IMG/VR virus record: IMGVR_UViG_2576861615_000004
Span: 1-41,233 of that record
DNA length: 41,233 nucleotides
Direction: 5' to 3' (one strand)
From: a virus
Shown: in pieces, positions 11,450-26,119 of the stretch
Numbering within the stretch: the first letter of the stretch is position 1
How the letters are laid out: each line of letters opens with the position of its first letter
The notes under the pieces: generated by a model
Told to the model about the DNA's origin: nothing
The model's input: the letters and a program-made list of their open reading frames with translations, nothing else
Databases searched by the model: none
Translations under genes and position numbers: made by a program

Positions 11450-11734
11450 ATGCAAGAGCACGAAAAGACGATTCTGGAGTTGATCCTCATGGGCGGACTG
11501 ATTGGCATTGCGAAAGTGTTGGTGGGTAGCGAGCAGCTCACGTTCCGGCTTGTGGCCGGGCGTGCGGTACTCGGTTCGGCGACGTCGATGGTTGCGGGGC
11601 TGGCGCTGCTGCAGATCCCGGATCTGCCGCCGATCGCATTGCTCGGCCTCGGCAGTGCGCTCGGCATCGTCGGGTCGCAGTACCTCGAAGTGCTGCTGCG
11701 CCGGAACGCAAAACGAATGTTTGGGGGAAAGTGA
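11450..11734 (+). CDS. holin (three predicted TM segments, basic C-terminus)
   Basis: The 94-aa product, MQEHEKTILELILMGGLIGIAKVLVG...LLRRNAKRMFGGK, has three hydrophobic stretches. It lies directly upstream of the endolysin with a GTGA overlap. Confidence 0.75.
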   Translation: MQEHEKTILELILMGGLIGIAKVLVGSEQLTFRLVAGRAVLGSATSMVAGLALLQIPDLPPIALLGLGSALGIVGSQYLEVLLRRNAKRMFGGK

Positions 11735-15156: not shown

Positions 15157-16206
15157 TCAAGACGCTTGGCGATCAAGCGAGGCATGGAAATCGGTCACAC
15201 CTTGGGACCAAACTGTGACCGATTCGGCATGTTGTGCCAGATGGTCTGGCGCAAGGTGCGCATACCGGAGAACCATGTCGTAACTCGACCATCCGCCCAG
15301 CTCCTTCAACCGCTCCAGCGGCGTGCCGTTTTGGACGTGCCAGCTCGCCCAGGTGTGGCGAACATCGTGGAATCGGAAGTTCTCGATGTTCGCCCTCGCA
15401 CATGCGGAGAGCCACTGCTCACGGTCCCACGACGTGATTCGCTTGCCGTTGCGGACAAATACGAACCGCTGATGCTTTCCAAGCTGCCGGCGGATCAAAT
15501 CTATCGCTTCACTGTTCAGCGGAACGCCGATCGGCTTGCCCGCTTTCGCCTGGTCTGGATGGATCCATGCGCGACGAGCTACCAAATCGATCTGCGACCA
15601 TTCAAGCCCCAAGATGTTTGCTTGCCTCAGGCCAGTCGCAAAGCCGAAGGCGGCAATATCCCGCATCCAGTCGCGATTGATCGAGCGCAGTAGCCGCTGC
15701 GCTTCCTCCTTCGTGATCCAGCGAATCCGCTTATTGGACTCCTTGATACATTTCAGGATCGGGGCCCGATCGATCCATTCCCACCTTACTGCTGCGTTCA
15801 GCATCCCGCGGATGGTTGCAAGATACCGATTTCGCGTCGCGACAGATGCCGGCTTGTCGTGCTTCCACCGGCCGCACATTTCCGGAAGAGCGCCCATGAT
15901 TTCGGCCGAGGTCAGAGTGTCGATCTGCCTCCCCTGAAAATAGGCGCCGAAGTGTCGTAGGTGGCCCACAAAGTTGATGTAATTCCGTTTGTGGACCTGC
16001 TCTTTGAGGTATCTCACGACGGCTTGTTCGTAGACGTAGCGGCTCCGCTCCCCGAGCTTGTGCACCCGCCACATTTCCGATCTCACCTTGTCGCGATACT
16101 CCTCAGCTTCCTTCCGGTCGGAAGTCCCACAAGAGCGGCGTATTCTTTCACCGCTTGGCGTGCGGAGATCGAGGTAATAGACGCCGCCGCGCTTTCGGAT
16201 GGACAT
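15157..16206 (-). CDS. int: tyrosine recombinase / phage integrase
   Basis: The N-terminus MSIRKRGGVYYLDLRTPSGERIRRS is an arm-binding-type sequence. The C-terminal catalytic region carries HDVRHTWASWHV ... LGGWSSYDMVLRYAHL (R..H..R..Y pattern). Confidence 0.95.
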   Translation of the reverse strand: MSIRKRGGVYYLDLRTPSGERIRRSCGTSDRKEAEEYRDKVRSEMWRVHKLGERSRYVYEQAVVRYLKEQVHKRNYINFVGHLRHFGAYFQGRQIDTLTSAEIMGALPEMCGRWKHDKPASVATRNRYLATIRGMLNAAVRWEWIDRAPILKCIKESNKRIRWITKEEAQRLLRSINRDWMRDIAAFGFATGLRQANILGLEWSQIDLVARRAWIHPDQAKAGKPIGVPLNSEAIDLIRRQLGKHQRFVFVRNGKRITSWDREQWLSACARANIENFRFHDVRHTWASWHVQNGTPLERLKELGGWSSYDMVLRYAHLAPDHLAQHAESVTVWSQGVTDFHASLDRQAS

Positions 16207-16403
16207 TGCTGATTCTCCTTTCCTTCCGTCCGCGCCGGTCGATCGGCATTGTAACCGGACGATTTCGATTTCAGTATTTCGGGCCAGATTCGCCAGACGC
16301 CGCCGATTTTGAAAAATCCCAGAGCTTTCCGGTTGGCGTAGATCGTCGAGTAAGAGACCGCGAGCAGCTCGGCGGCCTCTTTGAGGGTTAGTGCGCGTTC
16401 CAT
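16083..16403 (-). CDS. xis: excisionase-like HTH protein
   Basis: MERALTLKEAAELLAVSYSTIYANRK...GGVWRIWPE is an excisionase/AlpA-type winged HTH. An SD gaggga lies upstream of the ATG at 16403. The frame stays open for 124 nt into int. Upstream alternative starts exist at 16475 and 16541. Confidence 0.65.
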   Translation of the reverse strand: MERALTLKEAAELLAVSYSTIYANRKALGFFKIGGVWRIWPEILKSKSSGYNADRPARTEGKENQQCPSESAAASITSISARQAVKEYAALVGLPTGRKLRSIATR

Positions 16404-16515
16404 GTTTTCCCTCACAGCGTCACCTCGGCCGGTGCGATAAGAGTCTTGGCGACCCATTGGCGCATGCGCGTCCATTGCTCTTCGGGTAACAGCTGCTGCA
16501 GTTCGCTCATGTCCA

Positions 16516-18462
16516 TTATTGGTGTTCTCCTGCGCGGTCAAGCCGTTCGATCGCGGCTTGGATCAGCGCGCCCGCCTTCACGAGATTTCGACGATGCGTC
16601 GTCGGCTTCCACCAATCGGCGGCCCACGGCCATGCAGGCGGCGGATCGCCGGCAGGATACGCGAGCGTGTGCATCGCGTAGCAGCCTGCGGCGCAGGACA
16701 ATTCGTGATCGCGGTATTGGTCGTCATGTGCAGGCGTCCAGCCTTCCTGCTCGACCTGCCGGCGGCGTTCGGCGAGCACGTCGCGCGCCGCGTTCGTCAC
16801 CTCGGCGCGCGGTTCCGGCCGTTGGTTCGCCAGCTCTCGGAGAACCCTGTAAGCTTTCTTGACGCGGGGATCGGGTGAAAGGCCGATCAAGTCAAGCGCG
16901 GTTCCAATCGCCGCACGGTGCTCGACCGTCAACGCGTGGCGATCGTCTGCCTGTGCGGCGTTTTCGATCACCTCCAGCGCTTCTTCCCACGGGCAGTTCG
17001 CATTCGAATGCTCGCCGATGTCCGCACCGAAATGCTTGGCAACGGCTGCGGCCAGCTTGTCGGCCGTTTCGTGGTATTCGTCGCGCTCGCGCAGCGCTTG
17101 GTCCCACAGTTCGTCATCGGTCGGGCGAGCGTCTGCCTGCGCGGGCTGCGGGGCGGCGTAGAGCGGCACGATCTTGCCATCACCATGGGCATCAGACAGC
17201 CGCTGCGCAGCGCCCTTGTCGCGCACGATCGGAGCAAAGTCATTGCTGGCCGAGCACACATATGCCACCGCTTCCGCCGCCATAGCAGGCGAGCCGATGT
17301 ACGGCGATTTCGTGTCGAGTGCTTCGAGCAGTGCCTCGGTACGGTTCGTTGCCTCCTGCCAATACCACGATGCCGCCATCCCTTCGCCGGCGCTGTAATC
17401 CTCCAGCGCGGACTTGATCGCACCGCGCGCGAAGCTGAATAGATCGCGGCGGTCGAGCGTCACGTCGTTCGCCCCTTCCGCCCCCGTCTCGTTGGCAGGT
17501 GCGGCACGGGCGAACACCGGCACGCCAGTTTCGTCACACCTCGGCGACACGATCGCGCCGTTGCCTTCCGCCAGTTCCTTCAAATCGTCCGCACGGATAT
17601 AGCCGATGGGGGTAGCCGCTCGCTCGTCCGCCGGCACGCGCTCCGCCTCGGCCGGGATGGCAGTCGATCCGTCGACAAAGATCGCGCCTTCCTCGGGGTA
17701 CTCGGTGACCCAGCAGTACATGCCGTTGCCGGCGTGCCCTTCGCCGCGCTGGAACGTGAGTTCGCCTTCAAGCTGGTCGCGATCGCGATCCGGCGCAATG
17801 AAGTCGAGTGCTTCGATCAGCTGCGCACCGGTCAGGGTGAGCGAGTGGCCGCTGAAGTTGATCAGTTGCTCGCTCGGGTCGATTGCGCGCTCGGTAGGGG
17901 CTACTTCTTGCTGACCGTTTGTCACAATGGGTTCGAGCTGCGCGGAAGTTGCGGCGCTCCACTTTGGGAGTTCCTGCCAGCCGAGTACCTCGTCATCCGG
18001 GCCCAGAGTCGGCGTGAACAAGGTATTGAATTCCCCACTTGGGTCTTCGCCGATGTCGTACCAGCCGTCGGCGATGAATTCTTTGCCGTCTTGGTCGTGC
18101 AGGTCGTCGGCGTAGTTGTTCGCGTGGCTGGCGGCGAACACGAATACACGACGATCGTCATGTGCACGGCGAACTGCCACGATGTATTCGCGGTGTTCGC
18201 CATCCTTGGTCGGCGGGGTTCCAGTTTTCCAATGTGCACGAGCGTCGACCGTCGCAGTTTCGTGCTGCTCGACAGGGTATCCGCTGAATGCGTGCGCGAT
18301 GAACTCGGTCAGGATGAAACGATCATTGGCGTTCGGTTCGCGCGAATCGTTGTTATCGCCGACGATTTCGAACGTCTCGATTGCTGCGAGCGCAGCTTGC
18401 GCAGTGATGGGCGCAGGTTGTTCGGATGCGGACAAACTGGAATCTTGTGGTTGCGTAGTCAT
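16516..18462 (-). CDS. large acidic early protein (648 aa), mosaic, unknown function
   Basis: ATG at 18462 has a GGAG SD. The N-terminal part (AHWKTGTPP...VLGWQELPKW) resembles small W/PP-motif domains seen in lambdoid Ea22-region proteins. The C-terminal block (EGWTPAHDDQY...WPWAADWWKP...LVKAGALIQAAIERLDR) looks like a conserved phage module I cannot name with certainty. Confidence 0.8.
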   Translation of the reverse strand: MTTQPQDSSLSASEQPAPITAQAALAAIETFEIVGDNNDSREPNANDRFILTEFIAHAFSGYPVEQHETATVDARAHWKTGTPPTKDGEHREYIVAVRRAHDDRRVFVFAASHANNYADDLHDQDGKEFIADGWYDIGEDPSGEFNTLFTPTLGPDDEVLGWQELPKWSAATSAQLEPIVTNGQQEVAPTERAIDPSEQLINFSGHSLTLTGAQLIEALDFIAPDRDRDQLEGELTFQRGEGHAGNGMYCWVTEYPEEGAIFVDGSTAIPAEAERVPADERAATPIGYIRADDLKELAEGNGAIVSPRCDETGVPVFARAAPANETGAEGANDVTLDRRDLFSFARGAIKSALEDYSAGEGMAASWYWQEATNRTEALLEALDTKSPYIGSPAMAAEAVAYVCSASNDFAPIVRDKGAAQRLSDAHGDGKIVPLYAAPQPAQADARPTDDELWDQALRERDEYHETADKLAAAVAKHFGADIGEHSNANCPWEEALEVIENAAQADDRHALTVEHRAAIGTALDLIGLSPDPRVKKAYRVLRELANQRPEPRAEVTNAARDVLAERRRQVEQEGWTPAHDDQYRDHELSCAAGCYAMHTLAYPAGDPPPAWPWAADWWKPTTHRRNLVKAGALIQAAIERLDRAGEHQ

Positions 18463-18529
18463 AAAATCTCCAATGCTCAGTGCGGACGGCAGGCCGACGT
18501 GGTTGCTCCGCGGTATCCTTTTCGGCAGC

Positions 18530-18970
18530 CTAGAACGGCAGGTCCGGGTCATCGGTGGGTGGTACGGATACGGCGCGGCCCGGCTGTAGCCTCCGGCTGG
18601 CGCGCACGCGTATCCGAATCATGTCCTTGCCGGTCATGTCGCAGACGTCTAGAAGTTCGCGGAAGGCTTTATATCTGGCCTTGCTGCGCGTGCTGGCGGT
18701 CACCGTGAACCACGCTTCGTATTCGAACTCGTCGCGCCACGGGGCGAGGCAGCGCCACTCGCGCAACACTGGCGTGTCCACGATTTCCCCGTACTCGACC
18801 TGGTCAGTCGGGTGATAGAGGCGCTCCTCCTCGGACTTGTCTCCGTCGATAACGACGCAGAGATAGTGGCCGTCGGCATTCACGATCACGCCGCGTTCGC
18901 CGTAGCATTTCACCTGACGGCCGCGCTCGGCCGGCACGCCGTAGTGTTTGCGGATGTATTCGAAGCTCAC
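18530..18970 (-). CDS. hypothetical protein (146 aa), translationally coupled to the ThiF-like gene
   Basis: GTG at 18970 overlaps the ThiF-like stop (GTGA). The track ORF from 19075 is an extension overlapping ThiF. Confidence 0.65.
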   Translation of the reverse strand: MSFEYIRKHYGVPAERGRQVKCYGERGVIVNADGHYLCVVIDGDKSEEERLYHPTDQVEYGEIVDTPVLREWRCLAPWRDEFEYEAWFTVTASTRSKARYKAFRELLDVCDMTGKDMIRIRVRASRRLQPGRAVSVPPTDDPDLPF

Positions 18971-19728
18971 TGGTGGTTCTCCGTGCTCCGGACAGGCAGT
19001 GGCCGCACGTGGCCTGTCTTCAAGTTGACGAAGGCACCGCACCACGTCAGGCGCGCATGCCGGAAGAATTCCCACAGGATCGCGAGCCCCTGCGTGACGA
19101 CGGCCTGGTTGATGAACAATTCTTGCCGCTCGAGCGCCTCGGCGAGGCTGCAGCTTGGCGTGTCGTCCTCGGGAATCGACGTGTCGATCAGTTCGGGCAG
19201 TACGCTATACGGCCAGGGCAGCGGGGTGCTATCTGCGGTCGCCGTGTTTCCGGGCGCGTCGTGCGCCGCGCCGAAGATTACCTGGCCGTCGCTCGCGCGA
19301 TTTCCGAGATCCATCACATAGCTGCCCGCCTTATTCAATGCCGGCGCCAATTTCGCGCGAGCGGCCGCGCTGTCGACGCACATGACAACGAGGTCCGGCG
19401 CGCCGCGGATGATCGCGTCGGCGCCGGCATGCACCGGTCGACCGCACCAGTCGAGCCCGAAAAATGCGTTCAGGCGATGCACGAGCACGACGCTCTTTCG
19501 CTGCCCCACATCGGCCGGACTGAACATCTGCCTGCCGACGTTCGCGGCGCTCACGGTGTCGGCGTCGAACGTGGTAACGTGCAGGCCCGGGTGGCCGAGC
19601 TCGACGAGCGCGTGATTGAGGCGAGCCAGCCCTGTCAACATTTGCGACCCCGTGCCGCCGCAACCGATCAGTGCGACCGTCACTCGTTCATCGCTGAGAA
19701 AGCGGGCCGGCGTCGTGTGATGGGTCAT
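18967..19728 (-). CDS. ThiF/MoeB/E1-like adenylyltransferase (PRTRC-type ThiF family)
   Basis: Rossmann motif VALIGCGGTGSQ (GxGxxG, nt 19648-19665), DxD..SAANVGRQ, and VVMCVDSAAAR. The ATG at 19728 overlaps the upstream stop (ATGA). Confidence 0.85.
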   Translation of the reverse strand: MTHHTTPARFLSDERVTVALIGCGGTGSQMLTGLARLNHALVELGHPGLHVTTFDADTVSAANVGRQMFSPADVGQRKSVVLVHRLNAFFGLDWCGRPVHAGADAIIRGAPDLVVMCVDSAAARAKLAPALNKAGSYVMDLGNRASDGQVIFGAAHDAPGNTATADSTPLPWPYSVLPELIDTSIPEDDTPSCSLAEALERQELFINQAVVTQGLAILWEFFRHARLTWCGAFVNLKTGHVRPLPVRSTENHQ

Positions 19729-20105
19729 ACCGTCCTCCACCAAGGCGCACCGACGTCGCGCCCGATCAGCGCGGCGCATTCGGTGATCGCGCGGCGCGTC
19801 GCGCGCTCGCGCTCCGCCTGCTGCGCGCAGACGTCATGCTGCGCATCGATGTCGTCGTGCGTGAAGTGGCGGAACGCGCCCGCGCCGGCATGCGCGGTCA
19901 CGTAATCAGCGAAGTGCGTCACGTCGATTCGGGCCGCGCTCGACAACTCGAATGCGTCGGCGCGCGAGCCAATCGAATCGAACGCGCGCCAGTCGGCGGC
20001 TGCATGCGGTCGGACGTGGATTGCGGTGCAATCGCGGACCGTGTGACGCTTCGCTTCCCATCCCGCGGCCCGTGCCGCGAGTTCGAGCATGTCGAGTTGG
20101 TTCAC
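19725..20105 (-). CDS. hypothetical protein (LELAARAAGWE N-terminus; resembles small phage NinX/DUF2591-like proteins)
   Basis: GTG at 20105 overlaps the JAB gene stop (GTGA), and its own stop overlaps the ThiF ATG. The family assignment is a weak recollection only. Confidence 0.6.
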   Translation of the reverse strand: MNQLDMLELAARAAGWEAKRHTVRDCTAIHVRPHAAADWRAFDSIGSRADAFELSSAARIDVTHFADYVTAHAGAGAFRHFTHDDIDAQHDVCAQQAERERATRRAITECAALIGRDVGAPWWRTV

Positions 20106-20905
20106 GCGGCTTTCTCCGTCGACGGGAAAAACGCCTGTACCGGCACACGGAGCGTGATCATTTTGCCGAGCGCGCACAGGCGGAAAGCAACGCTCGGATT
20201 GGCCGTGCCAACGCCGCCGATCACGCCGGCGATCTTCACTTCGCCCGCGTCGTCGGCGTCGTCGGTGGCGCTGAAGAATGCCGGGTTGACGCCGTGGCTG
20301 TGCAGATCGATTGCGAGGCTCTCGTCGTCGGCGAGGAGCGGGCGATTAATGGTTATTGCGGTCGGCGTGGAGTTGGTCACTTCGACTTCGCGGTACACCA
20401 GTTCCTTGTTCGTCTCGTTCCAGACGATCCATGCGGCATGCTCGTTCGGCGCGGCGTTGGCCGCGTCGGTTGCGAACCGGCGGAGGTGCGGCTCGGCGGC
20501 GCTGATGCGTCCGAATGCGAATTCGATTTTCGCGTCGATCGAGCCGTACGGCGGACGCGGGCAAGCGCCTTCGATCGGGGCGATCGGCTGAATCAGGTGC
20601 AGCCACGGGCGGCGGATCTCGACGAACAGACCTTCGGCCGCGAGCAGGAATCGGTGACCGACGTCGAGCAGCGGCGAAAATTCGGCGTGGCGCGGCACGG
20701 TGGCGACCGGGGCGCTGTCGAACAGCGCTTCGTCCAGGCCGATGTTTGCGTCGCTGCTGGCGGCTGCGATCGGGCGCGACCGGCCGGCTTGCACCTCGGC
20801 CGCGACCCCTTCGCTGAAAATCTTGAGTGCATCGCCGAGAGAGCGCAGCGTGTCGGTCGTCGCTGCTTCGAACGTTGCTTTGATTTCTTCAATTTTGGTG
20901 GACAT
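20102..20905 (-). CDS. JAB/MPN (JAMM) metallopeptidase, PRTRC protein A-like
   Basis: HSHGVNPAFFSATD is an exact HxHx7SxxD JAMM motif (nt 20261-20302), with an upstream Glu (NEHAAW). A GGAG SD precedes the start. Confidence 0.85.
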   Translation of the reverse strand: MSTKIEEIKATFEAATTDTLRSLGDALKIFSEGVAAEVQAGRSRPIAAASSDANIGLDEALFDSAPVATVPRHAEFSPLLDVGHRFLLAAEGLFVEIRRPWLHLIQPIAPIEGACPRPPYGSIDAKIEFAFGRISAAEPHLRRFATDAANAAPNEHAAWIVWNETNKELVYREVEVTNSTPTAITINRPLLADDESLAIDLHSHGVNPAFFSATDDADDAGEVKIAGVIGGVGTANPSVAFRLCALGKMITLRVPVQAFFPSTEKAA

Positions 20906-20909
20906 GTGG

Positions 20910-21620
20910 TTAGCTCCGTTGCGTGAGGCGTTGAATTGCGGATTCGACGGTCAGGTCGACCGCGACCAGTCTTTCGGTGGGAAATTCGGCGCCGTCGAGC
21001 AGCTGGCGCCAGAGCGTGGAAATGCTGCCGCCCTGAATCAGTTTTGGGGCATTCGGGTGTGTGAAGCGGCTGCGAAAGAATTCCTCTTCGTAGCGCTCGA
21101 CGTCGGCCGCGTTCGGCTGCTTCGCGATTTCGACATTGCCGGTGCACACGGAACCGGTGGAATAGACGTTGTAGTACGGCGCCTGAAACAGGGCGGTCCC
21201 GCGTTGCGGCCGCGCATTCTCGGCAAGCGCGAACACGTGTCGGCGGTCCCCTTGGGCGATGAACAGCAATGCAGGTTGGTGCGCCGGGCCCGCGCGCGTG
21301 CCGAGCGGTTTGTCGGAGTTGAACCAGACGTGCCGCACGCATGCCGGCATCCACCACGCGACAACGCCGGAGCCAGCAAAGATCACGCGTTCGTGCACGT
21401 AGCCGTGTTGACCAGCGTGTTTCGCTGCTGCGGCAGTGAACGCCGCGAGTTGTCGCTCGGTTACGGGTTCACCTGCAAGCAATGTCGGCATGCCGTCGAC
21501 AACACGCGCTGCATGGCGCGTTACGTATACGCGCGTGCCGGTGCTGTTCCGATACAGCAGCAGGGCGGAATCGAGTTCGAGGTGCGATTCAGTATCGCAA
21601 TAGATATCGACGTCTTTCAT
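20910..21620 (-). CDS. prokaryotic E2-like protein, PRTRC protein B-like
   Basis: The 236-aa product has a conserved-looking YYNVYSTGSVCTGN, with candidate catalytic Cys159 at nt 21144-21146. Its position between the F-like and JAB genes matches PRTRC cassettes. The ATG overlaps the upstream stop (ATGA). Confidence 0.7.
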   Translation of the reverse strand: MKDVDIYCDTESHLELDSALLLYRNSTGTRVYVTRHAARVVDGMPTLLAGEPVTERQLAAFTAAAAKHAGQHGYVHERVIFAGSGVVAWWMPACVRHVWFNSDKPLGTRAGPAHQPALLFIAQGDRRHVFALAENARPQRGTALFQAPYYNVYSTGSVCTGNVEIAKQPNAADVERYEEEFFRSRFTHPNAPKLIQGGSISTLWRQLLDGAEFPTERLVAVDLTVESAIQRLTQRS

Positions 21621-22696
21621 GCATGCACCTGTATGCGTTGGGGCTCGGCCGGGCTGTCCGGCGACCGGAGCGCGATCACGTCCAGCAGGTGTTCGACTGC
21701 TAGGGCGAGTCGCGAGGTATTGCGCATCCGCGCGAACCAGTTGCCGACCGCTTTACCCGCGAGTGACAGGCTGACCGCGCACGCGGCCTCCAGCGCATCG
21801 CCTTGCATTTCGTGCTCGAGAAAGTCATCGATCACGCGGCCGGTTCCGTCGCCGTGGTCCCACAACAGGAACAGGGAAAAATCGATGCCCGGCCCGGCGT
21901 TCGAATCGAAGTGGTCGACGCGCGCAAATGGGCCGCCGTGCGCGATTACGCTGTAGATTTCGTCGCACGCGCTGACGGCAAGCGCCGCGATTTCGTCTTG
22001 TTCTGCTGCACGGTGTACGTCGAACGTATTCAACACCTGCTGCGGATTGACGAGCCAGTCTGGCGCGTCGCGAAAGAATTCCGTGCGACGGGGGATCGAA
22101 CACGCCTCGAAAAATTCCTCAGGAGTTGCCTCGTCGACGTCGTCGTAGTGCATGCGCAGCTCGGGTAGCGCCTCGATCTCGTTTGCATGCCCTTGCCAAT
22201 ACATGTAGCCGGCAATCGAGATCGTCTCGCTCGGCGTCAGCACGGACGGCAGGTAGTGCGCGCATGCTTCGTAAAGCACAGCGAGAACGGTCTGGCCGAG
22301 TCCGGGCATCACGCTTTCAAGGTGCGAAATGCTGCCGCGCAGGAATCGCGCTGGCGCGGTTCCTGCGCCTCCGTCGCTATGAATCGACACCCACACGCTG
22401 TTGTCGTCGCCGGTGCGGTAGTACGACGGGCCGCAAGAATCAGAGCTCAGGCGCAAGCTCCATTCGAAAATGGAGTGCGCGTCCGTGAGTTCTTGCCACG
22501 TGCGCGTCAGCGCGATCCGAGCTAGCTCGCGCTCGTTGCGGTGATCGTCAGCGAGTTGCGCATCTTCGATCGTCAGCATGTTTCCGCGCATCAGCGCGAG
22601 CGCAAGATTGTGCGAAAACTGGCCGCTATCACCGACGACGTACCGCGCTGGTACTTCGCCGACAATTCGCGGCAGGGTAAGAGCAGTCGATGTCAT
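21617..22696 (-). CDS. PRTRC protein F-like (359 aa, unknown biochemical function)
   Basis: Size and position between the Ubl and E2-like genes match PRTRC order. The ORF is coupled at both ends (ATGA overlaps). The assignment is by context and recollection only. Confidence 0.6.
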   Translation of the reverse strand: MTSTALTLPRIVGEVPARYVVGDSGQFSHNLALALMRGNMLTIEDAQLADDHRNERELARIALTRTWQELTDAHSIFEWSLRLSSDSCGPSYYRTGDDNSVWVSIHSDGGAGTAPARFLRGSISHLESVMPGLGQTVLAVLYEACAHYLPSVLTPSETISIAGYMYWQGHANEIEALPELRMHYDDVDEATPEEFFEACSIPRRTEFFRDAPDWLVNPQQVLNTFDVHRAAEQDEIAALAVSACDEIYSVIAHGGPFARVDHFDSNAGPGIDFSLFLLWDHGDGTGRVIDDFLEHEMQGDALEAACAVSLSLAGKAVGNWFARMRNTSRLALAVEHLLDVIALRSPDSPAEPQRIQVHA

Positions 22697-22878
22697 GGCA
22701 ATACCGGCATGTCGGCCGACGGGAGACGTAAGCGTGGCGACGAGCTATTGCAGCCAGCAGCAACGCGCGAAATGTGCACTGCGAGCGGGCTGTTGACGTG
22801 CTTCTTCGGTGCCGCCGCCGCTCGGCTATCGCTGAACGTGTTTTCGCGCAGGTGCTTTCGAAGTTCGCGGAGCGTCAT
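22693..22878 (-). CDS. small coupled ORF (61 aa) between the Ubl and F-like genes
   Basis: Its ATG overlaps the Ubl gene stop, and its stop overlaps the F-like ATG (ATGA at both ends). No family recognised. Confidence 0.5.
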   Translation of the reverse strand: MTLRELRKHLRENTFSDSRAAAAPKKHVNSPLAVHISRVAAGCNSSSPRLRLPSADMPVLP

Positions 22879-23357
22879 TTCGATTGCGGGCAGTAGCGCG
22901 CATGCAGCGCATTGATGAACGCGACTTCTTCGTCAAGCAGCGGGCACACGTGCGCACTGCTGAACCGGTCGAGTTCGGCGAGATACGCGCGGACGGGGTG
23001 CGGAACGATGCAGTCGACAGCGCGTATCTGGTCGAGCTTCCGGCGTGCGTCGTCGGAGTCAACCGGGTTCGCGATCGCGATACCCGCAACGTAGGTTCGT
23101 CCGTCGGCACTGGTGGACAGTTTGACCGTGTAGCTGCTGAGCGGCAGCGCGTAATTTCCTTTCGTGCCGACAGCGCGCCGGAACGTGTAGACGTTGCGGT
23201 TGCCTTTGATGACCGGTCCCTCAATTTCCGCGTTCGTGAGCTCCGGATAGGTCTGCGAATAGAAGTCGCGGATCTGCTGGAGCGTGAACGTCGGTGCAGG
23301 GTCGGCGAGCTTCGCGCCGTTGTACGAGAATTCGCGAGCGAGCGTTTCGATTTCCAT
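22875..23357 (-). CDS. ubiquitin-like beta-grasp protein (PRTRC protein C-like) fused to a 93-aa C-terminal extension
   Basis: The first 67 aa, MEIETLAREFSYNGAKLADPAPTFTLQQIRDFYSQTYPELTNAEIEGPVIKGNRNVYTFRRAVGTKG, match the short PRTRC-C type Ubl, which normally ends near ...GTKG. Here the frame continues for 93 more aa with Cys/His residues. A GGAGG SD precedes the start. Confidence 0.75.
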   Translation of the reverse strand: MEIETLAREFSYNGAKLADPAPTFTLQQIRDFYSQTYPELTNAEIEGPVIKGNRNVYTFRRAVGTKGNYALPLSSYTVKLSTSADGRTYVAGIAIANPVDSDDARRKLDQIRAVDCIVPHPVRAYLAELDRFSSAHVCPLLDEEVAFINALHARYCPQSK

Positions 23358-23371
23358 GTCGTTGCCTCCAA

Positions 23372-23920
23372 TCAGTACAGGTCGACGCCCGCGTCGGTCG
23401 ATTGCGGTTGCGCCGCGCTTGCAGGTTCGGCGGGCGCCGGCGTATCTGCGGCCGGCGTCTCGCCGCCGTCGCTCGGTTGGCCGGCATCGTCGATGCGCAT
23501 CTGGCGCGGGTCGGTCGCGCCGGCGTTTGCGCCGTCAGTCGAGGGCGGGTTGTTGGCGTCGTCGGCCTTCGCGGCCTTCGGTGGCCGGCCGCGACCGCGC
23601 TTCCCGGGTGTGCCGGCGGCGTCACTAGCGTTCGGCGCCGGAAGCGCGGGCGCCGCGTCGGGTTTGTTCGCGGCGGCGCACGCGCGCGCCTGGTCGAGCA
23701 GCGACAGTGCGCCGGGTTCGTACGCCTCGACCGCTGCTGCGAATTCGGCGTCGAGTTCTTGGGGTGTCGCTACCAGCGACAACGGCCAGAGTTCTTTCTT
23801 GCCTTTCGCGTTCGGCAGGGGTGTGACGTTGACGCGCAGGTTTTCGTCGCCTTCGGCCGTGATCAGGATGTTGATGCTCGTGGTGCGCGCGAGCTCGTGC
23901 AGTGACGTGAACAGGGACAT
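23372..23920 (-). CDS. PRTRC protein E-like (N-terminal conserved domain, AT-hook, acidic/Pro-Ala tail)
   Basis: MSLFTSLHELARTTSINILITAEGDENLRVNVTPLP...LVATPQELDAEF resembles PRTRC-E. An AT-hook (KRGRGRPPK) and a low-complexity C-terminus follow. Confidence 0.65.
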   Translation of the reverse strand: MSLFTSLHELARTTSINILITAEGDENLRVNVTPLPNAKGKKELWPLSLVATPQELDAEFAAAVEAYEPGALSLLDQARACAAANKPDAAPALPAPNASDAAGTPGKRGRGRPPKAAKADDANNPPSTDGANAGATDPRQMRIDDAGQPSDGGETPAADTPAPAEPASAAQPQSTDAGVDLY

Positions 23921-23941: not shown

Positions 23942-24232
23942 TCAGGCCGCGAGGCCGTCGTAATTGCGATCGGCGAAATCGTTATCGCCGGGATAGCGGT
24001 TCGAGCCGTCGGCTCGATGCCAGCAAAATAGGGAGCCGCGCCGGTGCGGGAACCAGTAACCGGCGCAGTCGCAACGCATGCGCGTCGTGTTGCGGCGGTT
24101 CATCCAGTTGTCGACGCGATATTTCCGGCGGTTGCACGTGCGGCACGCCGGTAGGCGCGTGTAGCGATCGGGATGGCGCCGCAGGCATCGGCGCGCGTCG
24201 CAGTGCGTGCAGCGGACGTGGCAACGCGGCAT
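23942..24232 (-). CDS. Cys/His-rich zinc-finger-like small protein (96 aa)
   Basis: Multiple CxxC pairs (CHVRCTHCDARRC, CRTC, CDCAGYWFPHRRGSLFC). It sits in the operon directly upstream of the Ubl cassette. Confidence 0.7.
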   Translation of the reverse strand: MPRCHVRCTHCDARRCLRRHPDRYTRLPACRTCNRRKYRVDNWMNRRNTTRMRCDCAGYWFPHRRGSLFCWHRADGSNRYPGDNDFADRNYDGLAA

Positions 24233-24235
24233 CGA

Positions 24236-24442
24236 TCAGTCCTCCGCGTCGCCGGCCTGCAGCCGTTTTACGTCCACGCGTGCAGCAGCGCGGCGTCGTT
24301 CGCGCGTTTCTCGCGCACGCGCTGACGATTCGAGTGCGTCCCGCACGCTGGCGCGCTGGATTGCGGTGTCGAAATCGCCGGTCATGTGCAGCAGTTGCCA
24401 CTCGACGCGCAGCAGATGGGTTGGCAGGTGATCTTTCTGCAT
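24236..24442 (-). CDS. hypothetical protein (68 aa)
   Basis: A tightly spaced member of the early-left operon with a basic C-terminal half. Confidence 0.55.
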   Translation of the reverse strand: MQKDHLPTHLLRVEWQLLHMTGDFDTAIQRASVRDALESSARARETRERRRAAARVDVKRLQAGDAED

Positions 24443-24449
24443 GGCCGGC

Positions 24450-24575
24450 TCACGCGCTGTAGGTGCTTTCGCTCGACGCGGCCGGCGCTTCGTCGCTGTA
24501 CGTCCATGCGACGCAACCGATGCCGACCGCGAGCCAGAGCAGCACGATTTTCCAGAGGGGCATGGGCTTGTTCAT
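24450..24575 (-). CDS. 41-aa single-TM micro-protein
   Basis: Read from the reverse strand: MNKPMPLWKIVLLWLAVGIGCVAWTYSDEAPAASSESTYSA. The ATG overlaps the upstream stop (ATGA). It is too short to appear in the ORF track. Confidence 0.5.
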   Translation of the reverse strand: MNKPMPLWKIVLLWLAVGIGCVAWTYSDEAPAASSESTYSA

Positions 24576-24814
24576 GCGCCCTCCGCCGGGTACAGGTGCT
24601 CCATGCCGGCGCCGGCAGCGAAAGCCTTGGCGAGTGCAAGATAGCCGTGTGACTCGAGTGCGCCGCAGAGGCTCGCGACGAAAGCGCGCGGCCGCGGTCG
24701 GTCGTCGCGCCTGCAGTGATTTTCAGCGGATTCGGCCGCTCGATTGATGCAGCCGAGCAGCATCGTTTCGAGCTGGCGTGCAGAACGGGGCGTGTTGTCC
24801 ATCACGCGCCTCAA
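24572..24814 (-). CDS. hypothetical protein (80 aa)
   Basis: The ATG at 24814 overlaps the upstream micro-ORF stop (ATGA), and its own stop overlaps the next ATG. Confidence 0.6.
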   Translation of the reverse strand: MRRVMDNTPRSARQLETMLLGCINRAAESAENHCRRDDRPRPRAFVASLCGALESHGYLALAKAFAAGAGMEHLYPAEGA

Positions 24815-24939
24815 ATGTCGAATGCCGGGGCGATCGCGCTGGCGATCAGGTAGAGCGCGAACAGGGCGACGAGCGGATGCCAGTCGCGACGTTCCGCCGC
24901 GCGCGCTGCGCGGGACCAGTGTTTGTTCAGGGTGTGCAT
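24811..24939 (-). CDS. 42-aa single-TM micro-protein, first gene of the early-left operon
   Basis: Read from the reverse strand: MHTLNKHWSRAARAAERRDWHPLVALFALYLIASAIAPAFDI. A GGGAGG SD lies upstream. It is too short to appear in the ORF track. Confidence 0.5.
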   Translation of the reverse strand: MHTLNKHWSRAARAAERRDWHPLVALFALYLIASAIAPAFDI

Positions 24940-24987
24940 TGAATTCGCCTCCCGTGGCGTAGGACGCCGACTAAGTGAGGCGGATGG

Positions 24988-25025
24988 TAGCGTAACGCGA
25001 ACGACACAGCAATAGCGAAACGCGA
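24988..25025. promoter_or_regulatory. operator pair at the early-left promoter region (OL-like)
   Basis: The 13-bp near-palindromes tagcgtaacgcga (24988-25000) and tagcgaaacgcga (25013-25025) lie 25 bp apart start to start. They have the same consensus and spacing as the pair between cI and cro. Confidence 0.65.
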
Positions 25026-25094
25026 ACTCTTTTAATTCCTACGCGAACGATTTCTGTAGGATAGAAGTAAGGTGCAATTTTTTAAGAAGCCTGA

Positions 25095-25147: not shown

Positions 25148-25393
25148 ATGAAAAGAGCAATTCAGCGCGAAGTGGCGATTTCGGTGAGGGCCGACGAGCC
25201 AGCGGAAGCCGCGCCGAGGCTGGCGTTGGCGAGTGTGGCGGGGAGGTTTCGCCGGGATCGGGTGTCGACCCTGACGATTACTGTGGGGATGGATGGCGCG
25301 ATCAGTCACCGTGCGCGTGTGCTGCCGGAGCACCGGCAGGAGATCGCTGATTGGTTGATAGCGTTAGCGTGCCGGATAGGCGCGCCGGATTAG
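25148..25393 (+). CDS. small LexA-controlled protein, candidate antirepressor (Tum-like role)
   Basis: The 81-aa ORF has high third-position GC. A GGGGA SD lies 5 nt upstream, and the SOS box sits in its promoter region. It converges on cI with a 4-nt overlap. The function is inferred from context only. Confidence 0.55.
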   Translation: MKRAIQREVAISVRADEPAEAAPRLALASVAGRFRRDRVSTLTITVGMDGAISHRARVLPEHRQEIADWLIALACRIGAPD

Positions 25394-25794
25394 CTTGCTT
25401 TGCGGGTGCGCGAGGAGACGCCAGCCTTTCCCGGCGTGTCACCTTCTTCAACAAATGGCGTTGAGTGGCGGGCGGCCGTGCTCTGGACGAGCAGGCCATT
25501 GACGAAGCCAATCACCTGGGCGCGCTGCATGTCGGAAAGTCGGCTCCAGCCAGCAATGATCTCCGGATCGTTGTCGAGCCAGCCGATTTCCTTTCCGGTC
25601 TTTTCCTCGATGTGGCGGGCAATGTCGTCCGATATCCCGCGAGGCTTTCCAGTGCGCGAGTCTTTCGACGCATTGACCCACTGGCGTATCTGAGTGTCCG
25701 TTTTGCCTATCAGTTCTGATAGGCGGCCGACGCTGCCGAGCTCTTCAATTAGGGCGCGAAGTTGTTCCCGCCTGATTTCGTGGCACGTTTTCAT
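25390..25794 (-). CDS. cI: CI-type repressor, HTH only (no S24/LexA-like peptidase domain)
   Basis: The HTH region is GRLSELIGKTDTQIRQWVN...RGISDDIARHIEEKTGKEIGWLD. The gene is divergent from cro across the operator pair. At 134 aa it has no Ala-Gly/Ser-Lys autocleavage module. Confidence 0.7.
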   Translation of the reverse strand: MKTCHEIRREQLRALIEELGSVGRLSELIGKTDTQIRQWVNASKDSRTGKPRGISDDIARHIEEKTGKEIGWLDNDPEIIAGWSRLSDMQRAQVIGFVNGLLVQSTAARHSTPFVEEGDTPGKAGVSSRTRKAS

Positions 25795-25830: not shown

Positions 25831-25868
25831 TCGCGAAACGCGATTGACCAGACGGTAGCGTTACGCTA
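25831..25868. promoter_or_regulatory. operator pair between cI and cro (OR-like)
   Basis: The 13-bp palindromes tcgcgaaacgcga (25831-25843) and tagcgttacgcta (25856-25868) lie 25 bp apart start to start. The consensus is T(A/C)GCG-N3-CGC(G/T)A. Confidence 0.7.
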
Positions 25869-25872
25869 TCGT
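25844..25872 (+). promoter_or_regulatory. candidate PR promoter (TTGACC-N17-TATCGT)
   Basis: -35 at 25844-25849 and -10 at 25867-25872, flanked and overlapped by the two operators. The -10 element ends 7 nt before the cro ATG. Confidence 0.45.
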
Positions 25873-25879
25873 TCGCGTC

Positions 25880-26119
25880 ATGGAACTGACTACATACCTC
25901 TCGAGTGCGGACGCGCCGTCCGCCGCCGACTTCGCCCGCCGTCTTGGCACTGCGCCGTCGGTGGTGAGTCAGTGGCGCACCGGTGCGCGACCTGTACCGA
26001 TCAAAAGCTGCGTCGCCATTGAGCGCGTTACTGCAGGCGAGGTAACTCGCCGCGATCTCCGCCCCAACGACTGGCACGACATCTGGCCGGAACTCGCTCG
26101 GCAAAAGGAGACTGCATGA
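25880..26119 (+). CDS. cro: Cro-like HTH regulator
   Basis: FARRLGTAPSVVSQWRTGARPVPIKSCVAIERVTAGEVTRRDLRPNDW is the typical Cro/YdaS-type pattern. The gene is divergent from the repressor. Confidence 0.8.
   Translation: MELTTYLSSADAPSAADFARRLGTAPSVVSQWRTGARPVPIKSCVAIERVTAGEVTRRDLRPNDWHDIWPELARQKETA

Follow-up and report, generated by a model that had tools for sequence, protein, structure and literature searches.

The 41,233-nt sequence analysed here over its whole length (IMGVR_UViG_2576861615_000004, hereafter the window) raises the question of what a ubiquitin-like conjugation set does in a phage genome. The window was found to be a complete KS9-like temperate siphovirus of Burkholderia; a temperate siphovirus is the type of carrier that a preliminary description had proposed. 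By its sequence, the set belongs to the PRTRC family of Ubl conjugation cassettes (Iyer et al. 2006, PMC1779556, operon type 6d) and sits in a repressor-controlled early operon, the leftward one, of a lambdoid Burkholderia prophage. We consider it rather likely that this is a phage-adapted version of the family which tags proteins in the way set out under the proposed mechanism below. In agreement with the preliminary description, which knew of no established PRTRC function, no published experiment on any PRTRC protein was found in the literature.

Identification of the PRTRC cassette

All six genes scored above the curated cutoffs of the NCBIfam PRTRC models (given below as bits versus cutoff), and plasmids pMOL28 and pQBR55 carry them in the order seen in the window, E-C-F-B-A-ThiF; both results uphold the earlier assignment to the PRTRC type. 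Searches with the PRTRC, Prok-E2_D, Prok-JAB and ThiF profiles, as proposed in the preliminary description, and with Prok_Ub all returned matches. The cassette genes lie on the minus strand, each where it had been placed previously; neighbouring genes either overlap by 4 nt at start and stop or are at most ~20 nt apart.

The ThiF-family E1 (253 aa, 18967-19728) matched TIGR03736 (PRTRC_ThiF; 297.6 versus 144.75 bits) and Pfam ThiF (E 1.4e-15). Its invariant residues comprise the nucleotide loop G22-C-G-G-T-G-S28 (codons 19645-19665), R66/Q67, K78, D119 and Cys193 (19150-19152). A thioester is not always used by minimal ThiF/MoeB-type E1s. The E2-like protein B (236 aa, 20910-21620; TIGR03737, 198.2 versus 131.45 bits; Prok-E2_D, E 7e-42) carries the motif YSTGSVC159TGN, with the Cys159 codon at 21144-21146, and His188, and both residues are invariant in 28 loci. 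The JAMM/JAB metallopeptidase, protein A (267 aa, 20102-20905; TIGR03735, 219.3 versus 101.8 bits; DUF2016 and Prok-JAB), contains H202-S-H204-x7-S212-x2-D215 (codons 20261-20302) and, upstream, Glu155; 27 loci show no variation at E155, H202, H204, S212, D215, R99 or W101. Overall, the catalytic residues, E1 Cys193 and Ubl Gly67 did not vary among 26-28 loci from phages and plasmids, which span 27-98% identity. The E1 GxGxxG, E2 YSTGSVCTGN and JAMM HxHx7SxxD motifs noticed earlier, and the AT-hook of protein E, were all present. Judged from its sequence, the tagging set is complete, its active sites are intact, and it is apparently active.

The 126-aa gene between JAB and E1 (19725-20105, minus strand) had been described as an unrelated insertion. 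The gene is indeed present and belongs to phrog_5086 (E 3.8e-25), a phage family of unknown function, with no PRTRC, Pfam or PADLOC match, but it is not specific to the window: it was inherited in the Burkholderia prophage lineage, being found in all examined Burkholderia prophage copies except two (L001 and L011). In a Pandoraea prophage, a different 236-aa gene occupies the JAB-E1 junction.

Position of the cassette in the early operon

A PL-like promoter on the minus strand (24984-25027) consists of a -35 element TTGCTG (25007-25012), a 17-nt spacer and a -10 element TACCAT (24984-24989). Two operator copies (24988-25002 and 25013-25027) overlap it. With a match to only 8 of 12 consensus positions, it escaped the consensus scan; this site probably works as a promoter. 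The promoter scan did find a PR-like promoter on the plus strand (25833-25872, TTGACC-17-TATCGT), which carries operator copies at 25833-25843 and 25856-25870. It lies between the CI repressor gene (25390-25794, minus strand), the product of which resembles the KS9 gp41 repressor, and the cro gene (25880-26119, plus strand), which matched Pfam YdaS_toxin and P22_Cro. The promoter architecture at 24984-25027 mirrors that at 25833-25872, with operator repeats at both, and the repeat family D1/D2 and a 54-nt inverted repeat, I1, also tie the PL-like site to the CI/Cro promoter region. The proposal of CI-operator control is therefore supported, since the operator motif that flanks the promoter-like site of the operon recurs at the CI/Cro promoter.

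Upstream of the cassette, and co-oriented with it, are five small, tightly packed early genes of 42, 80, 41, 68 and 96 aa (23942-24939, minus strand), of which the 68-, 41- and 42-aa genes are common to KS9. The Cys-rich 96-aa gene belongs to phrog_17384, which occurs in 67 phage records, mostly without PRTRC, and is therefore not specific to the cassette. The remainder of the operon (15157-18962, minus strand), assigned by PHROG and Pfam matches, contains two genes of unknown function, ~144 aa (phrog_16342) and ~650 aa (phrog_6628), followed by the genes for an excisionase-like protein (Pfam HTH_17) and a tyrosine integrase (Pfam Phage_integrase). This downstream order, two phage genes followed by xis and int, is repeated in sister prophages. 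No promoter-like site was found within the cassette by the consensus scan, and the scanned region was not enriched in terminator-like sites relative to shuffles. It is the operator and promoter architecture that suggests expression of the cassette early in lytic growth; an internal promoter may be active in lysogens.

Ubl precursor and accessory proteins

The Ubl gene (22875-23357, minus strand) encodes a 160-aa protein C. The TIGR03738 match (106.1 versus 45.95 bits) and the Prok_Ub match (E 4.7e-27) are confined to residues 1-67 (23157-23357), and the AF2 model placed beta-grasp strands and a helix at residues 7-60, with pLDDT below 50 at 67-72; the beta-grasp fold claimed earlier is thereby confirmed by profile and model. 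The domain ends in RRAVGTKG (Gly67 codon, 23157-23159), and FRRAVGTKG is invariant in 35 homologues, with conservation collapsing immediately past it. Residues 68-160 (22875-23156) form a C-terminal pro-peptide, modelled by AF2 as a linker, a beta-hairpin (76-95) and a three-helix domain (101-155). In other prophages, the three-helix domain occurs as free 63-aa proteins and also fused to DUF551. Tail length and sequence vary among phage copies. Phage Ubls continue for 60-130 aa after the glycine motif, whereas plasmid Ubls continue for 0-13 aa, mostly 3 aa; their equivalent motif is AGAKG, and 8 of 118 plasmid Ubls stop at the Gly.

The 61-aa protein s61 (22693-22878, minus strand), translationally coupled to the Ubl gene by ATGA, is conserved in every Burkholderia prophage copy. 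It is homologous to a peptide fused in-frame right after GTKG in the Ubls of three relatives (L024, P0067 and P0068; HMM E 1e-25 to 1e-28); in the alignment, s61 Met1 falls on the position following Gly67. Gly67 therefore likely marks a cleavage site, and this architecture suggests that the Ubl is made as a precursor cleaved after Gly67. A precedent for cleavage of a Ubl precursor is the cutting of a Ubl-GFP fusion by the Bil DUB (10.1101/2023.09.04.556158). Alternatively, the gene fusions could be neutral, with long tails persisting simply because they are removed by the JAB enzyme.

Protein F (359 aa, 21617-22696, minus strand) matched TIGR03742 (PRTRC_F; 117.1 versus 58.4 bits) and Pfam alpha-hel2. 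It diverges far faster than E1 or JAB (44-98% identity among sister prophages, versus 80-98% for E1), as was remarked for type 6d by Iyer et al. (PMC1779556). It is an alpha/beta protein (AF2 model: pLDDT 74, pTM 0.75), and no relatives were found in the PDB by fold (best E 1.6) or by sequence. As F has no recognisable fold relatives, its candidate role in specificity is a guess. Physical linkage alone may account for the co-variation of s61, F and E2. Protein E (182 aa, 23372-23920, minus strand; TIGR03741, 68.1 versus 37.95 bits; PF19556) has a conserved N-terminal domain followed by a disordered tail with the AT-hook K107RGRGRPPK115 (23576-23602).

Proposed mechanism

In the lysogen, CI would repress the operon at OL-type operators, and upon infection or induction transcription from the PL-like promoter would run through the small early genes and the cassette into xis-int. 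Protein C would be synthesised as the 160-aa precursor, and peptidase A would cut after Gly67 of RRAVGTKG to release a 67-aa Ubl with a C-terminal Gly and a 93-aa tail polypeptide. The ThiF-type E1 would then adenylate Gly67, probably holding the Ubl as a thioester on Cys193, before the Ubl moves to Cys159 of E2 and on to lysines of target proteins. The fast-evolving F, perhaps with s61, might choose the targets; the JAB enzyme might also undo conjugation; and the AT-hook of protein E might keep the machinery on DNA, as ParB may do in the plasmid versions. The cassette probably helps a newly arrived or induced mobile element to establish itself, by modifying either host proteins (those of defence or of the nucleoid) or the element's own DNA-bound proteins. 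It may act in counter-defence or host takeover.

Alternative functions

Prophages frequently carry defence genes, and the cassette might accordingly be a lysogen-expressed defence of Bil type, in which the Ubl tags the central tail fibre of superinfecting phages and blocks assembly. Bil systems, composed of E1, E2, JAB and Ubl, do attach the Ubl to this fibre (10.1101/2023.09.04.556158), and a role in defence or addiction was proposed for these mobile operons by Iyer et al. (PMC1779556). Furthermore, the hairpin of the Ubl tail (SSYTVKLSTSADGRTYVAGIAIANPVDS, 23055-23138, minus strand) is similar to a segment (residues 1161-1188) of the central tail fibre J that the phage itself encodes (9948-10031, plus strand). 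The resemblance is statistically real in this phage (BLASTP E 3e-5; Smith-Waterman score 70, versus 33.4 +/- 4.4 for shuffles, with 0 of 1000 as high), and a profile of 12 hairpin variants matched J alone in the six-frame window (E 1.7e-6). However, because J of the phage itself bears the motif, the phage would target itself, and the hairpin is missing from many sister copies that have the same J. The cassette is also translationally coupled within an operon that starts at the operator-flanked PL-like promoter, and should therefore be off in the lysogen. PADLOC models for Bil, CBASS and other systems did not match the cassette beyond marginal generic E1 similarity, so that the cognate relation to Bil suggested in the preliminary description was not borne out. 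The family is found mainly on conjugative plasmids and ICEs (151 plasmid records, 68 of these typed conjugative). We regard a Bil-type defence as an unlikely explanation.

The hairpin also bears on the possibility that the cassette modifies the phage's own virion or its assembly, for example J, with the Ubl tail as a docking site or decoy, altering host range or shielding J from Bil-like tagging. The hairpin occurs in several variant forms, and Foldseek gave weak local matches to the lambda and A8 gpJ fibre; a Pfam Phage_Tail_Tip match was sub-threshold. Collimonas and Burkholderia share a bacterial order, Burkholderiales. The characterised type I Bil system is from Collimonas sp. OK412, and no protein other than the central tail fibre is known as a target of a free-standing bacterial Ubl system (10.1101/2023.09.04.556158). 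We nevertheless judge virion modification to be quite unlikely: the likeness spans just ~23 residues, with 50% DNA identity and diverged third codon positions; the hairpin is missing from 128-137-aa Ubl forms with the same J and from the Ralstonia, Massilia and Pandoraea copies; the timing of the early operon precedes tail synthesis; and tail fibres are lacking in the plasmid and ICE versions, which excludes virion modification as the core function.

A module for DNA partition or maintenance, serving segregation or persistence, is implied by the name "ParB/ThiF partitioning cassette", a name and reading used in PMC13366799 and likewise in ICE papers. The plasmid versions (pMOL28 and pQBR55) always begin with a large ParB-family protein, a ParB-like gene occupies the corresponding slot in KS9 and lies directly downstream of ThiF in three sister prophages (L008, L010 and L017), and protein E has its AT-hook. 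In the window, however, tblastn with two PRTRC ParB proteins as queries found no ParB, and ParA and ParM were likewise absent, as the preliminary description had noted for ParB and an actin-like gene. The phage integrates through its integrase and xis and therefore needs no partition system, and all but one of the six proteins belong to a Ubl pathway, with catalytic sites intact; we know of no segregation role for such components. The plasmid form of AB2 was not recovered by its authors (PMC13366799), and partitioning is a very improbable function.

A sulfur-carrier or small-molecule pathway of the ThiS/ThiF or MoaD/MoeB kind, instead of protein conjugation, can be dismissed almost entirely: the E1 is a minimal, ~250-aa adenylating enzyme of ThiF/MoeB type, but its weak matches to ThiF and MoeB models fall far under their cutoffs (e.g. 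38 versus 159 bits), the cassette includes a JAMM peptidase and an E2 whose Cys is invariant, and searches of the operon (ORFs, NCBIfam, Pfam and PHROG) found no sulfurtransferase, rhodanese or thiazole/molybdopterin synthase partner.

Comparison with known PRTRC systems

The occurrence of PRTRC within phages was known before: Ralstonia phage Dina has all six genes labelled as such in RefSeq, and the cassette was reported in 2026 in B. gladioli phages AB2 and BgVeeders33 (PMC13366799). A survey of phage and prophage databases, suggested in the preliminary description, showed that the arrangement recurs in lambdoid prophages across Burkholderiales, with the cassette between the CI repressor and xis-int also in phage Dina, in Massilia and Pandoraea prophages and in 19 IMG/VR contigs. 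On plasmids pMOL28 and pQBR55, the neighbours are instead an orphan methylase, an exonuclease, DUF932 and a relaxase. The plasmid/ICE and phage early operon contexts share only expression on arrival in a cell, which supports the establishment role. The AT-hook of protein E is present in the phage copies (the window, BgVeeders33 and Dina) but not in pMOL28 or pQBR55, and the JAB protein of the phage clade has an N-terminal extension of ~55 aa that the pMOL28 copy lacks. What is new is thus a distinct phage-type PRTRC variant, without ParB and with an AT-hook in protein E, a JAB N-terminal extension and a putative Ubl precursor.

Identity of the cassette and conservation of its active sites

It is virtually certain that the minus-strand genes at 18967–23920 form a PRTRC cassette, type 6d of the 2006 operon classification. 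NCBIfam profiles placed six of six genes above their curated cutoffs, and the Pfam matches agreed with these assignments. The genes encode protein E (23372–23920; 68.1 bits against a cutoff of 37.95), protein C, the ubiquitin-like protein or Ubl (22875–23357; 106.1 against 45.95, with Prok_Ub over residues 2–65), protein F (21617–22696; 117.1 against 58.4; Pfam alpha-hel2), protein B, the E2 (20910–21620; 198.2 against 131.45; Pfam Prok-E2_D), protein A, the JAB peptidase (20102–20905; 219.3 against 101.8; Pfam DUF2016 and Prok-JAB), and ThiF, the E1 (18967–19728; TIGR03736, 297.6 against 144.75; Pfam ThiF), which is a single minimal domain. The minus-strand open reading frames of the preliminary description were all found at exactly the coordinates it reported, neighbouring genes either overlapping by 4 nt at start and stop or lying no more than about 20 nt apart, and the motifs it had quoted from the E2, JAB and E1 were confirmed. 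The order E-C-F-B-A-ThiF, which it had recognized as that of PRTRC, is the same on plasmids pMOL28 and pQBR55; in the window it is interrupted by a 61-aa gene (s61; 22693–22878, minus strand) between C and F and by a 126-aa phage gene (19725–20105, minus strand) between JAB and E1.

Residue conservation was assessed in homologous genes from 26–28 phage and plasmid loci, ranging from 27 to 98% identity. Invariant residues include Cys159 and His188 of the E2 (28 loci), Glu155, His202, His204, Ser212 and Asp215 of the JAB together with Arg99 and Trp101 of its N-terminal domain (27 loci), and both Gly67 of the Ubl and the Gly-loop, Arg66, Gln67, Lys78, Asp119 and Cys193 of the E1 (26–28 loci). Active-site invariance of this extent is far beyond chance and speaks against the cassette being a decayed relic. 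PHROGs has no entry for any of the six PRTRC proteins, and PDB sequence searches with the E2, JAB and Ubl returned only noise. Protein F had no sequence match in the PDB either, and its AF2 model (pLDDT 74) had no fold neighbour there (best E 1.6, TM about 0.1).

The carrier phage and its probable early operon

The last 34 nt of the window (41200–41233) repeat the first 34 nt (1–34) inside the tape-measure gene, which shows that the phage genome is circularly closed and that the window covers it completely, at about 41.2 kb. It is related to Burkholderia phage KS9 (temperate siphovirus, genus Stanholtvirus), sharing about 90% identity with it in the tail and lysis genes and about 88% in the head and replication genes. 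The region from 13.7 to 24.2 kb is not shared with KS9, which carries a ParB-like gene and AlpA in the slot matching the PRTRC position.

Five small early genes lie upstream of the cassette, and beyond it the leftward operon continues through two genes of uncharacterised phage families in PHROGs (phrog_16342 and phrog_6628) and an HTH_17 excisionase-like gene (Pfam) to a tyrosine integrase (15157–16206, minus strand; Pfam). All genes from the first leftward gene through the integrase are co-oriented and packed. The surroundings of the cassette also include a CI-like repressor gene (25390–25794, minus strand), Cro (25880–26119), a CII-like gene and DnaB.

A 15-nt operator motif, TAGCG(T/A)AACGCGAAC, has two copies directly ahead of the first leftward gene (24988–25002 and 25013–25027) and two more, one of them partial, in the CI/Cro intergenic region (25833–25843 and 25856–25870); the left and right operator regions together form a 54-nt imperfect inverted repeat. 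On the right side, the promoter scan identified TTGACC-17-TATCGT, which is overlapped by the operator motif, and its mirror on the left side is TTGCTG-17-TACCAT (25012–24984, minus strand), after which come a GGGAGG ribosome-binding site and an ATG at 24939. The consensus scan found no promoter-like site within the cassette, and the counts from promoter and terminator scans of 14.5–26.5 kb were not above those of shuffled sequences; the PL-like promoter was called from the operator architecture and not from the consensus scan. Operators common to the PL-like and CI/Cro sites, the adjoining CI gene and the terminal xis-int pair, which reproduce the PL / N ... xis-int arrangement of lambda, support the proposal of a CI-operator-bearing leftward early operon. 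By analogy, the cassette is likely to be repressed in the lysogen and expressed early.

Several other genes near the cassette were noted. A Cys-rich 96-aa early protein (23942–24232, minus strand; phrog_17384) is 81–99% conserved in all Burkholderia PRTRC prophages. Its gene was rejected as part of the cassette, since most of the 67 phage records that contain it (Xanthomonas, Ralstonia, Bordetella, Pseudomonas and others) have no PRTRC; some of these phages are not known to be temperate. In the phrog_6628 protein (16516–18552, minus strand; about 650 aa), the C-terminal 100 aa or so form a domain common to many other PHROG families, and a piece of this family was also found in the gene between JAB and ThiF of a Pandoraea prophage. 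Just before the integrase, and 3' of the regular lysis cassette (M15 peptidase, 11731–12186; DUF2514 spanin-like protein, 12084–12665), a second lysozyme gene (Pfam Phage_lysozyme) is followed by an LprI-like lysozyme-inhibitor gene (13876–14795, plus strand), and this pair looks like a moron pair.

Distribution and variation of the cassette

Surveys of phage, prophage and plasmid records located the cassette or relatives of its E2 in isolated phages, prophages and plasmids. Among the 50,697 records of INPHARED, E2 relatives were found in three distinct phages only, namely BgVeeders33 (75% protein identity and 80% DNA identity), Ralstonia phage Dina and Ralstonia phage YO105_4. Dina gp02–gp07 are named 'PRTRC system protein ...' in RefSeq (NC_055026) and lie downstream of the repressor, opposite CII. 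IMG/VR contained 19 further prophage contigs with the cassette. The patterns used for the genome-collection scan were too narrow and returned two loci only, on two Burkholderia chromosomes, which is not a genome-wide frequency. Prophages of Massilia and Pandoraea, found from distant long Ubls, showed the same placement, with the repressor, small genes, E, C, in some cases a small ORF, F, B, A, ThiF, xis and int followed by chromosomal genes.

On plasmids, 151 records contained an E2 relative, at 40% identity or less, and 68 of these 151 were typed as conjugative. The canonical plasmid layout is ParB (560–590 aa)-E-C-F-B-A-ThiF. The neighbours of the cassette include an orphan methylase, an exonuclease and DUF932 on pMOL28, and a MobH relaxase on pQBR55. 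On a plasmid of B. cepacia ATCC 25416 (locus L111, 13977–16164), a type IV secretion gene cluster is immediately followed by PRTRC B, A and ThiF, and the gene table shows no E, C or F; this may reflect an incomplete table or a reduced form of the system.

The small gene between JAB and E1 had been described as an unusual insertion. It is indeed an unrelated 126-aa gene (phrog_5086), but it is not peculiar to the window, being present in most Burkholderia copies. The junction is empty in two of the homologous loci (L001 and L011), in Dina and in the Massilia prophage, and holds an unrelated 236-aa gene in the Pandoraea prophage, so that the JAB/ThiF junction appears to tolerate passengers. A role for the 126-aa gene as a component of the system is doubtful, given its absence from L001 and L011 and the unrelated gene at the Pandoraea junction; tblastn of the gene against isolated phages found nothing.

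The related Burkholderia prophages are mosaic. Their E1, JAB and passenger genes have 80–97% identity, whereas discrete allelic classes were seen for s61, F and E2, with identities near 97, 58 or 45% for F (44–98% overall) and near 92 or 59% for the E2. Since the s61, F and E2 genes are adjacent, their co-variation may reflect linkage and not interaction. From these comparisons, protein F is the fast-evolving part of the cassette, as was noted by Iyer et al. (PMC1779556).

The Ubl precursor and its predicted processing site

Two size classes of Ubl were distinguished. The close, phage-type homologues are 88–201 aa long (67 of 67), with 60–130 residues after the conserved glycine (93 aa in the Ubl of the window), whereas the plasmid-type homologues are 64–82 aa long (all of the 120 among those listed) and have 0–13 residues, mostly three, after the equivalent conserved AGAKG, with eight of 118 stopping at the Gly itself. 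In an alignment of 35 long Ubls, FRRAVGTKG is invariant, and conservation collapses directly after it. The AF2 model of the precursor (pLDDT 77.7) contains a beta-grasp fold (7–60), a low-confidence linker (67–72), a beta-hairpin (76–95) and a three-helix domain (101–155), and the pTM of 0.39 suggests that these domains have no fixed relative position. Foldseek searches with the precursor against the PDB and viral models found no significant whole-protein match, only weak matches to beta-grasp folds and gpJ fragments.

What follows the glycine differs among copies. In one homologous locus (L024) and two homologous proteins (P0067 and P0068), the Ubl continues in frame after ...GTKG as LTLRE..., and the whole of this continuation shows homology to the free s61 protein (MTLRE...; HMM E 1e-25 to 1e-28), with s61 Met1 aligning with the first residue past Ubl Gly67. 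The Ubl tails of Ralstonia and Cupriavidus align with s61 more weakly. On these alignments, the s61 gene is best read as a split-off Ubl tail. Prophages without PRTRC also have the three-helix tail domain, either by itself in 63-aa proteins or at the N-terminal end of a DUF551 protein. Its pattern, YLxELDRFxxAHxCPLLDEE..F..ALH.RY, was seen in prophage early regions at two loci (L112, 8001–8192; L114, 8001–8621) and in three proteins (P0091–P0093).

Eukaryotes encode ubiquitin–ribosomal protein fusions, as well as Ubl precursors with short C-terminal tails. As in those systems, the Ubl here is translated ahead of another polypeptide or a short pro-peptide, from which it would presumably be freed by a dedicated peptidase, and the same partner exists in fused and split forms. 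This likeness is an analogy only; the partners in the window are small phage proteins, and their cleavage is only predicted. Two different partners, fused and split, all joined at one residue, are best explained by peptidase cleavage after Gly67, for which the co-encoded JAMM peptidase is the obvious candidate. The deubiquitinase (DUB) of the bacterial anti-phage system Bil cuts a Ubl-GFP fusion (10.1101/2023.09.04.556158).

Proposed pathway and its possible role

In the pathway that we propose, PL would drive early expression of a Ubl conjugation pathway with a processed precursor. The JAB would cut the Ubl precursor after Gly67, the E1 would adenylate the Ubl and then carry it as a thioester on Cys193, and Cys159 of the E2 would hand it to lysines of targets that protein F, with or without s61, is proposed to select. 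The JAB may also be able to undo conjugation, and protein E might tether the system to DNA in place of the plasmid ParB. The cassette probably encodes an enzymatically active conjugation system with JAB processing at Gly67.

The carriers of the cassette, which are conjugative plasmids, ICEs and phage early operons, share arrival or activation in a cell, which makes establishment, host takeover or counter-defence the likeliest role. A role in establishment or counter-defence is put forward here as a tentative reading. The preliminary description had linked counter-defence to a phage-borne cognate of Bil, and this link was not borne out, since the PADLOC models of BilA, BilB and BilC matched none of the Ubl, E2 and JAB, and BilD gave a marginal match (E 0.0014) over 84 residues of the E1. 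PADLOC also led to the rejection of Bil and CBASS membership. A Bil-like defence active in the lysogen is unlikely, as both the missing Bil profile matches and the position of the cassette in the early operon speak against it.

Resemblance of the Ubl tail to the tail fibre

It is improbable that the cassette acts on the phage's own central tail fibre, J. This explanation derives from a hairpin-like segment of about 23–28 residues in the Ubl tail that resembles J, and the plasmid versions of the cassette, which have no tail fibre, argue against it. Residues 74–101 of the precursor (23055–23138, minus strand), SSYTVKLSTSADGRTYVAGIAIANPVDS, align with residues 1161–1188 of J (9948–10031, plus strand), ASYQIKTQITSDGRTYIAGIGVGINNDS, at the start of the Phage_Tail_Tip domain of J, where the conserved J motif is SYQIKTQITSDGRTYIAGIGVG. 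BLASTP found 13 identities in 28 positions (E 3e-5), and the Smith-Waterman score of 70 was reached by none of 1000 shuffles (33.4 +/- 4.4). When a profile of 12 hairpin variants was searched against the six-frame translation of the window, J was the sole match (E 1.7e-6; next best 1.1). Three hairpin variants gave sub-threshold matches to Pfam Phage_Tail_Tip, and Foldseek indicated weak local matches of the precursor to the gpJ fibres of lambda and A8.

In lambda, the counterpart region forms the lower beta-prism of the central fibre and sits directly above the receptor-binding domain (PMC11101478). The resemblance is intriguing because Bil defence attaches its Ubl to the central tail fibre (10.1101/2023.09.04.556158). 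The hairpin is absent in many sister copies with the same J, and no co-variation of the hairpin with the cognate J motif was found, J being nearly invariant and the same in hairpin-less phages. Recent capture of the hairpin from J was rejected, given a DNA identity of 50% and divergence at third codon positions. The resemblance is statistically real in this phage, but the motif is short, and we regard it as a lead and not a finding.

A more novel view, to which we attach little probability, is that the phage runs its own Ubl conjugation in early lytic growth and that the long pro-peptide plays an active part, its hairpin docking the precursor or the released tail on J, so as to pre-empt or reverse tagging of J by host Bil or to decorate its own virion. 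If true, PRTRC would be the first viral counterpart of bacterial Ubl immunity, and a function would be provided for the last '6x' operon family still uncharacterised.

ParB-like genes and partitioning

The preliminary description had reported ParB to be absent, and there is indeed no PRTRC ParB at the head of the cassette. ParB models matched none of the ten proteins scanned across 16.5–24 kb, and tblastn of the window with the PRTRC ParB proteins of pMOL28 and pQBR55 and with the KS9 ParB-like protein found nothing. The model of PRTRC protein D, which we take to be the actin-like component, had no match among the same ten proteins (the cassette and the two genes after it), and protein D was not among the genes listed within 12 kb at the pMOL28 and pQBR55 loci. 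In three sister prophages, a KS9-type ParB-like gene is located immediately 3' of ThiF (L008, 12672–13454; L010, 12668–13459; L017, 12696–13487), in the slot held by the phrog_16342 gene in the window, suggesting that a ParB-like partner is sometimes retained at the cassette end opposite to that in the plasmid layout.

Partitioning is a very unlikely function of the cassette in this phage, which carries no ParB, ParA or ParM with it and has an integrase with which to integrate. Sulfur-carrier chemistry is extremely unlikely, as an E2 and a JAB are present and a sulfur-transfer partner is not.

Prior knowledge and significance

The statement that PRTRC has no experimentally established function agrees with our literature searches on PRTRC and Prok-E2, which found no experimental study. 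Papers of the Corbett and Sorek groups assign functions to 6B (CBASS), 6C/Bil and 6E/Bub and call the other operon families uncharacterised. Biochemical work now exists for four of the E1/E2/JAB families of the 2006 catalogue (6A-MBL, type II CBASS, Bil/6C and Bub/6E), and none for PRTRC (6d) in the literature searched. It is usually mislabelled as a 'partitioning' cassette, and a 2025 preprint reads PRTRC as 'Pilus Retraction/Contraction system' (10.64898/2025.12.11.693706), a mis-annotation that is a sign of how poorly the cassette is understood.

Public records already contain the family, its name and a few phage examples. A 'ThiF-partitioning cassette' of phage AB2 was described in 2026 in a paper on B. 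gladioli prophages, which noted its homology to BgVeeders33 and Dina (PMC13366799). According to that paper, its function is unstudied and, outside NCBI records, there is no earlier report of it in phages. As far as the searched literature shows, three points seem to be new: a phage-type variant that can be defined as a coherent form, the conservation of its place in what appear to be lambdoid early operons across Burkholderiales, and the fusion/fission evidence for a predicted Ubl processing site.

The phage form offers a compact, inducible and tractable setting for study, with one prophage operon and a manipulable host, and so a way into the one bacterial Ubl operon family that is still uncharacterised. 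If host defence or nucleoid proteins are modified on entry, the cassette would represent a new class of counter-defence common to phages, plasmids and ICEs; if it proves to be a defence system, Bil-like immunity would be extended. Either outcome would require the annotation as a partition system to be corrected.

Comparison with known systems

Type II CBASS Cap2/Cap3, 6A-MBL and Bub (6E) are further members of the wider group of bacterial E1/E2/JAB operons and show a weak likeness in the nucleotide-binding region of the E1. They differ in having E1-E2 fusions or other peptidases and other partners (CD-NTase, metallo-beta-lactamase), whereas E1 and E2 are separate genes in the window, and the PADLOC 'E1-E2' matches cover about 70 residues of the nucleotide-binding region. 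In BilABCD (type I of Collimonas; type II, 6C/CEHH), as in the cassette, the E1, E2, JAB deubiquitinase and Ubl are separate proteins. The Bil Ubl carries a C-terminal Gly, and the deubiquitinase is able to cut C-terminal fusions. However, the E1 of Bil is multidomain, the window has proteins E and F in addition, and Bil is carried by the host, while the cassette of the window is carried by a phage and, by analogy, is probably expressed in lytic growth.

Dina (NC_055026) and BgVeeders33 (OK665841) resemble the window in the location of the cassette in an early operon downstream of the repressor, in the long Ubl and in the AT-hook of protein E. In Dina, the Ubl runs straight on into a fused s61-like peptide, and the three-helix tail is missing, as is the inserted gene; BgVeeders33 has neither the inserted gene nor the hairpin. 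Unlike the window, B. gladioli phage AB2 has been reported to carry ParB (PMC13366799).

The plasmid and ICE forms of PRTRC (NCBIfam TIGR03734–03742; pMOL28 of Cupriavidus metallidurans and pQBR55) share with the window the six families, their order, the invariant catalytic residues, a Ubl ending in ...KG followed by a pro-peptide, and a mobile-element carrier. The E2 of the window is 27–34% identical to those of genuine plasmid copies, and the window differs from them in having no PRTRC ParB and a Ubl tail of 93 aa in place of 0–13 aa, in the addition of the 61-aa gene and an unrelated phage gene inside the cassette, and in a location within a phage PL-type operon and not beside transfer genes. 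The protein E copies of pMOL28 and pQBR55 have no AT-hook, which is KRG(R/P)GRPPK in the window, BgVeeders33 and Dina, and the pMOL28 JAB does not have the extra N-terminal segment, about 55 aa, of the JAB in the window.

The description of type 6d lists plasmid and chromosomal bacterial cases, and no phage copies or long Ubl precursors (PMC1779556). Its components are a Ubl, a JAB with an N-terminal alpha+beta domain containing a conserved Arg and Trp, an E1, an E2 in which the classical His upstream is missing and an invariant His follows the Cys, and a helical protein that diverges rapidly (PMC1779556). The long Ubl tail goes beyond this description, which the window otherwise matches feature by feature, with the Cys and His of the E2, a full JAMM motif with DUF2016, a single-domain Ubl and a diverging protein F, the conserved Arg and Trp being R99 and W101 and the post-Cys His being H188.
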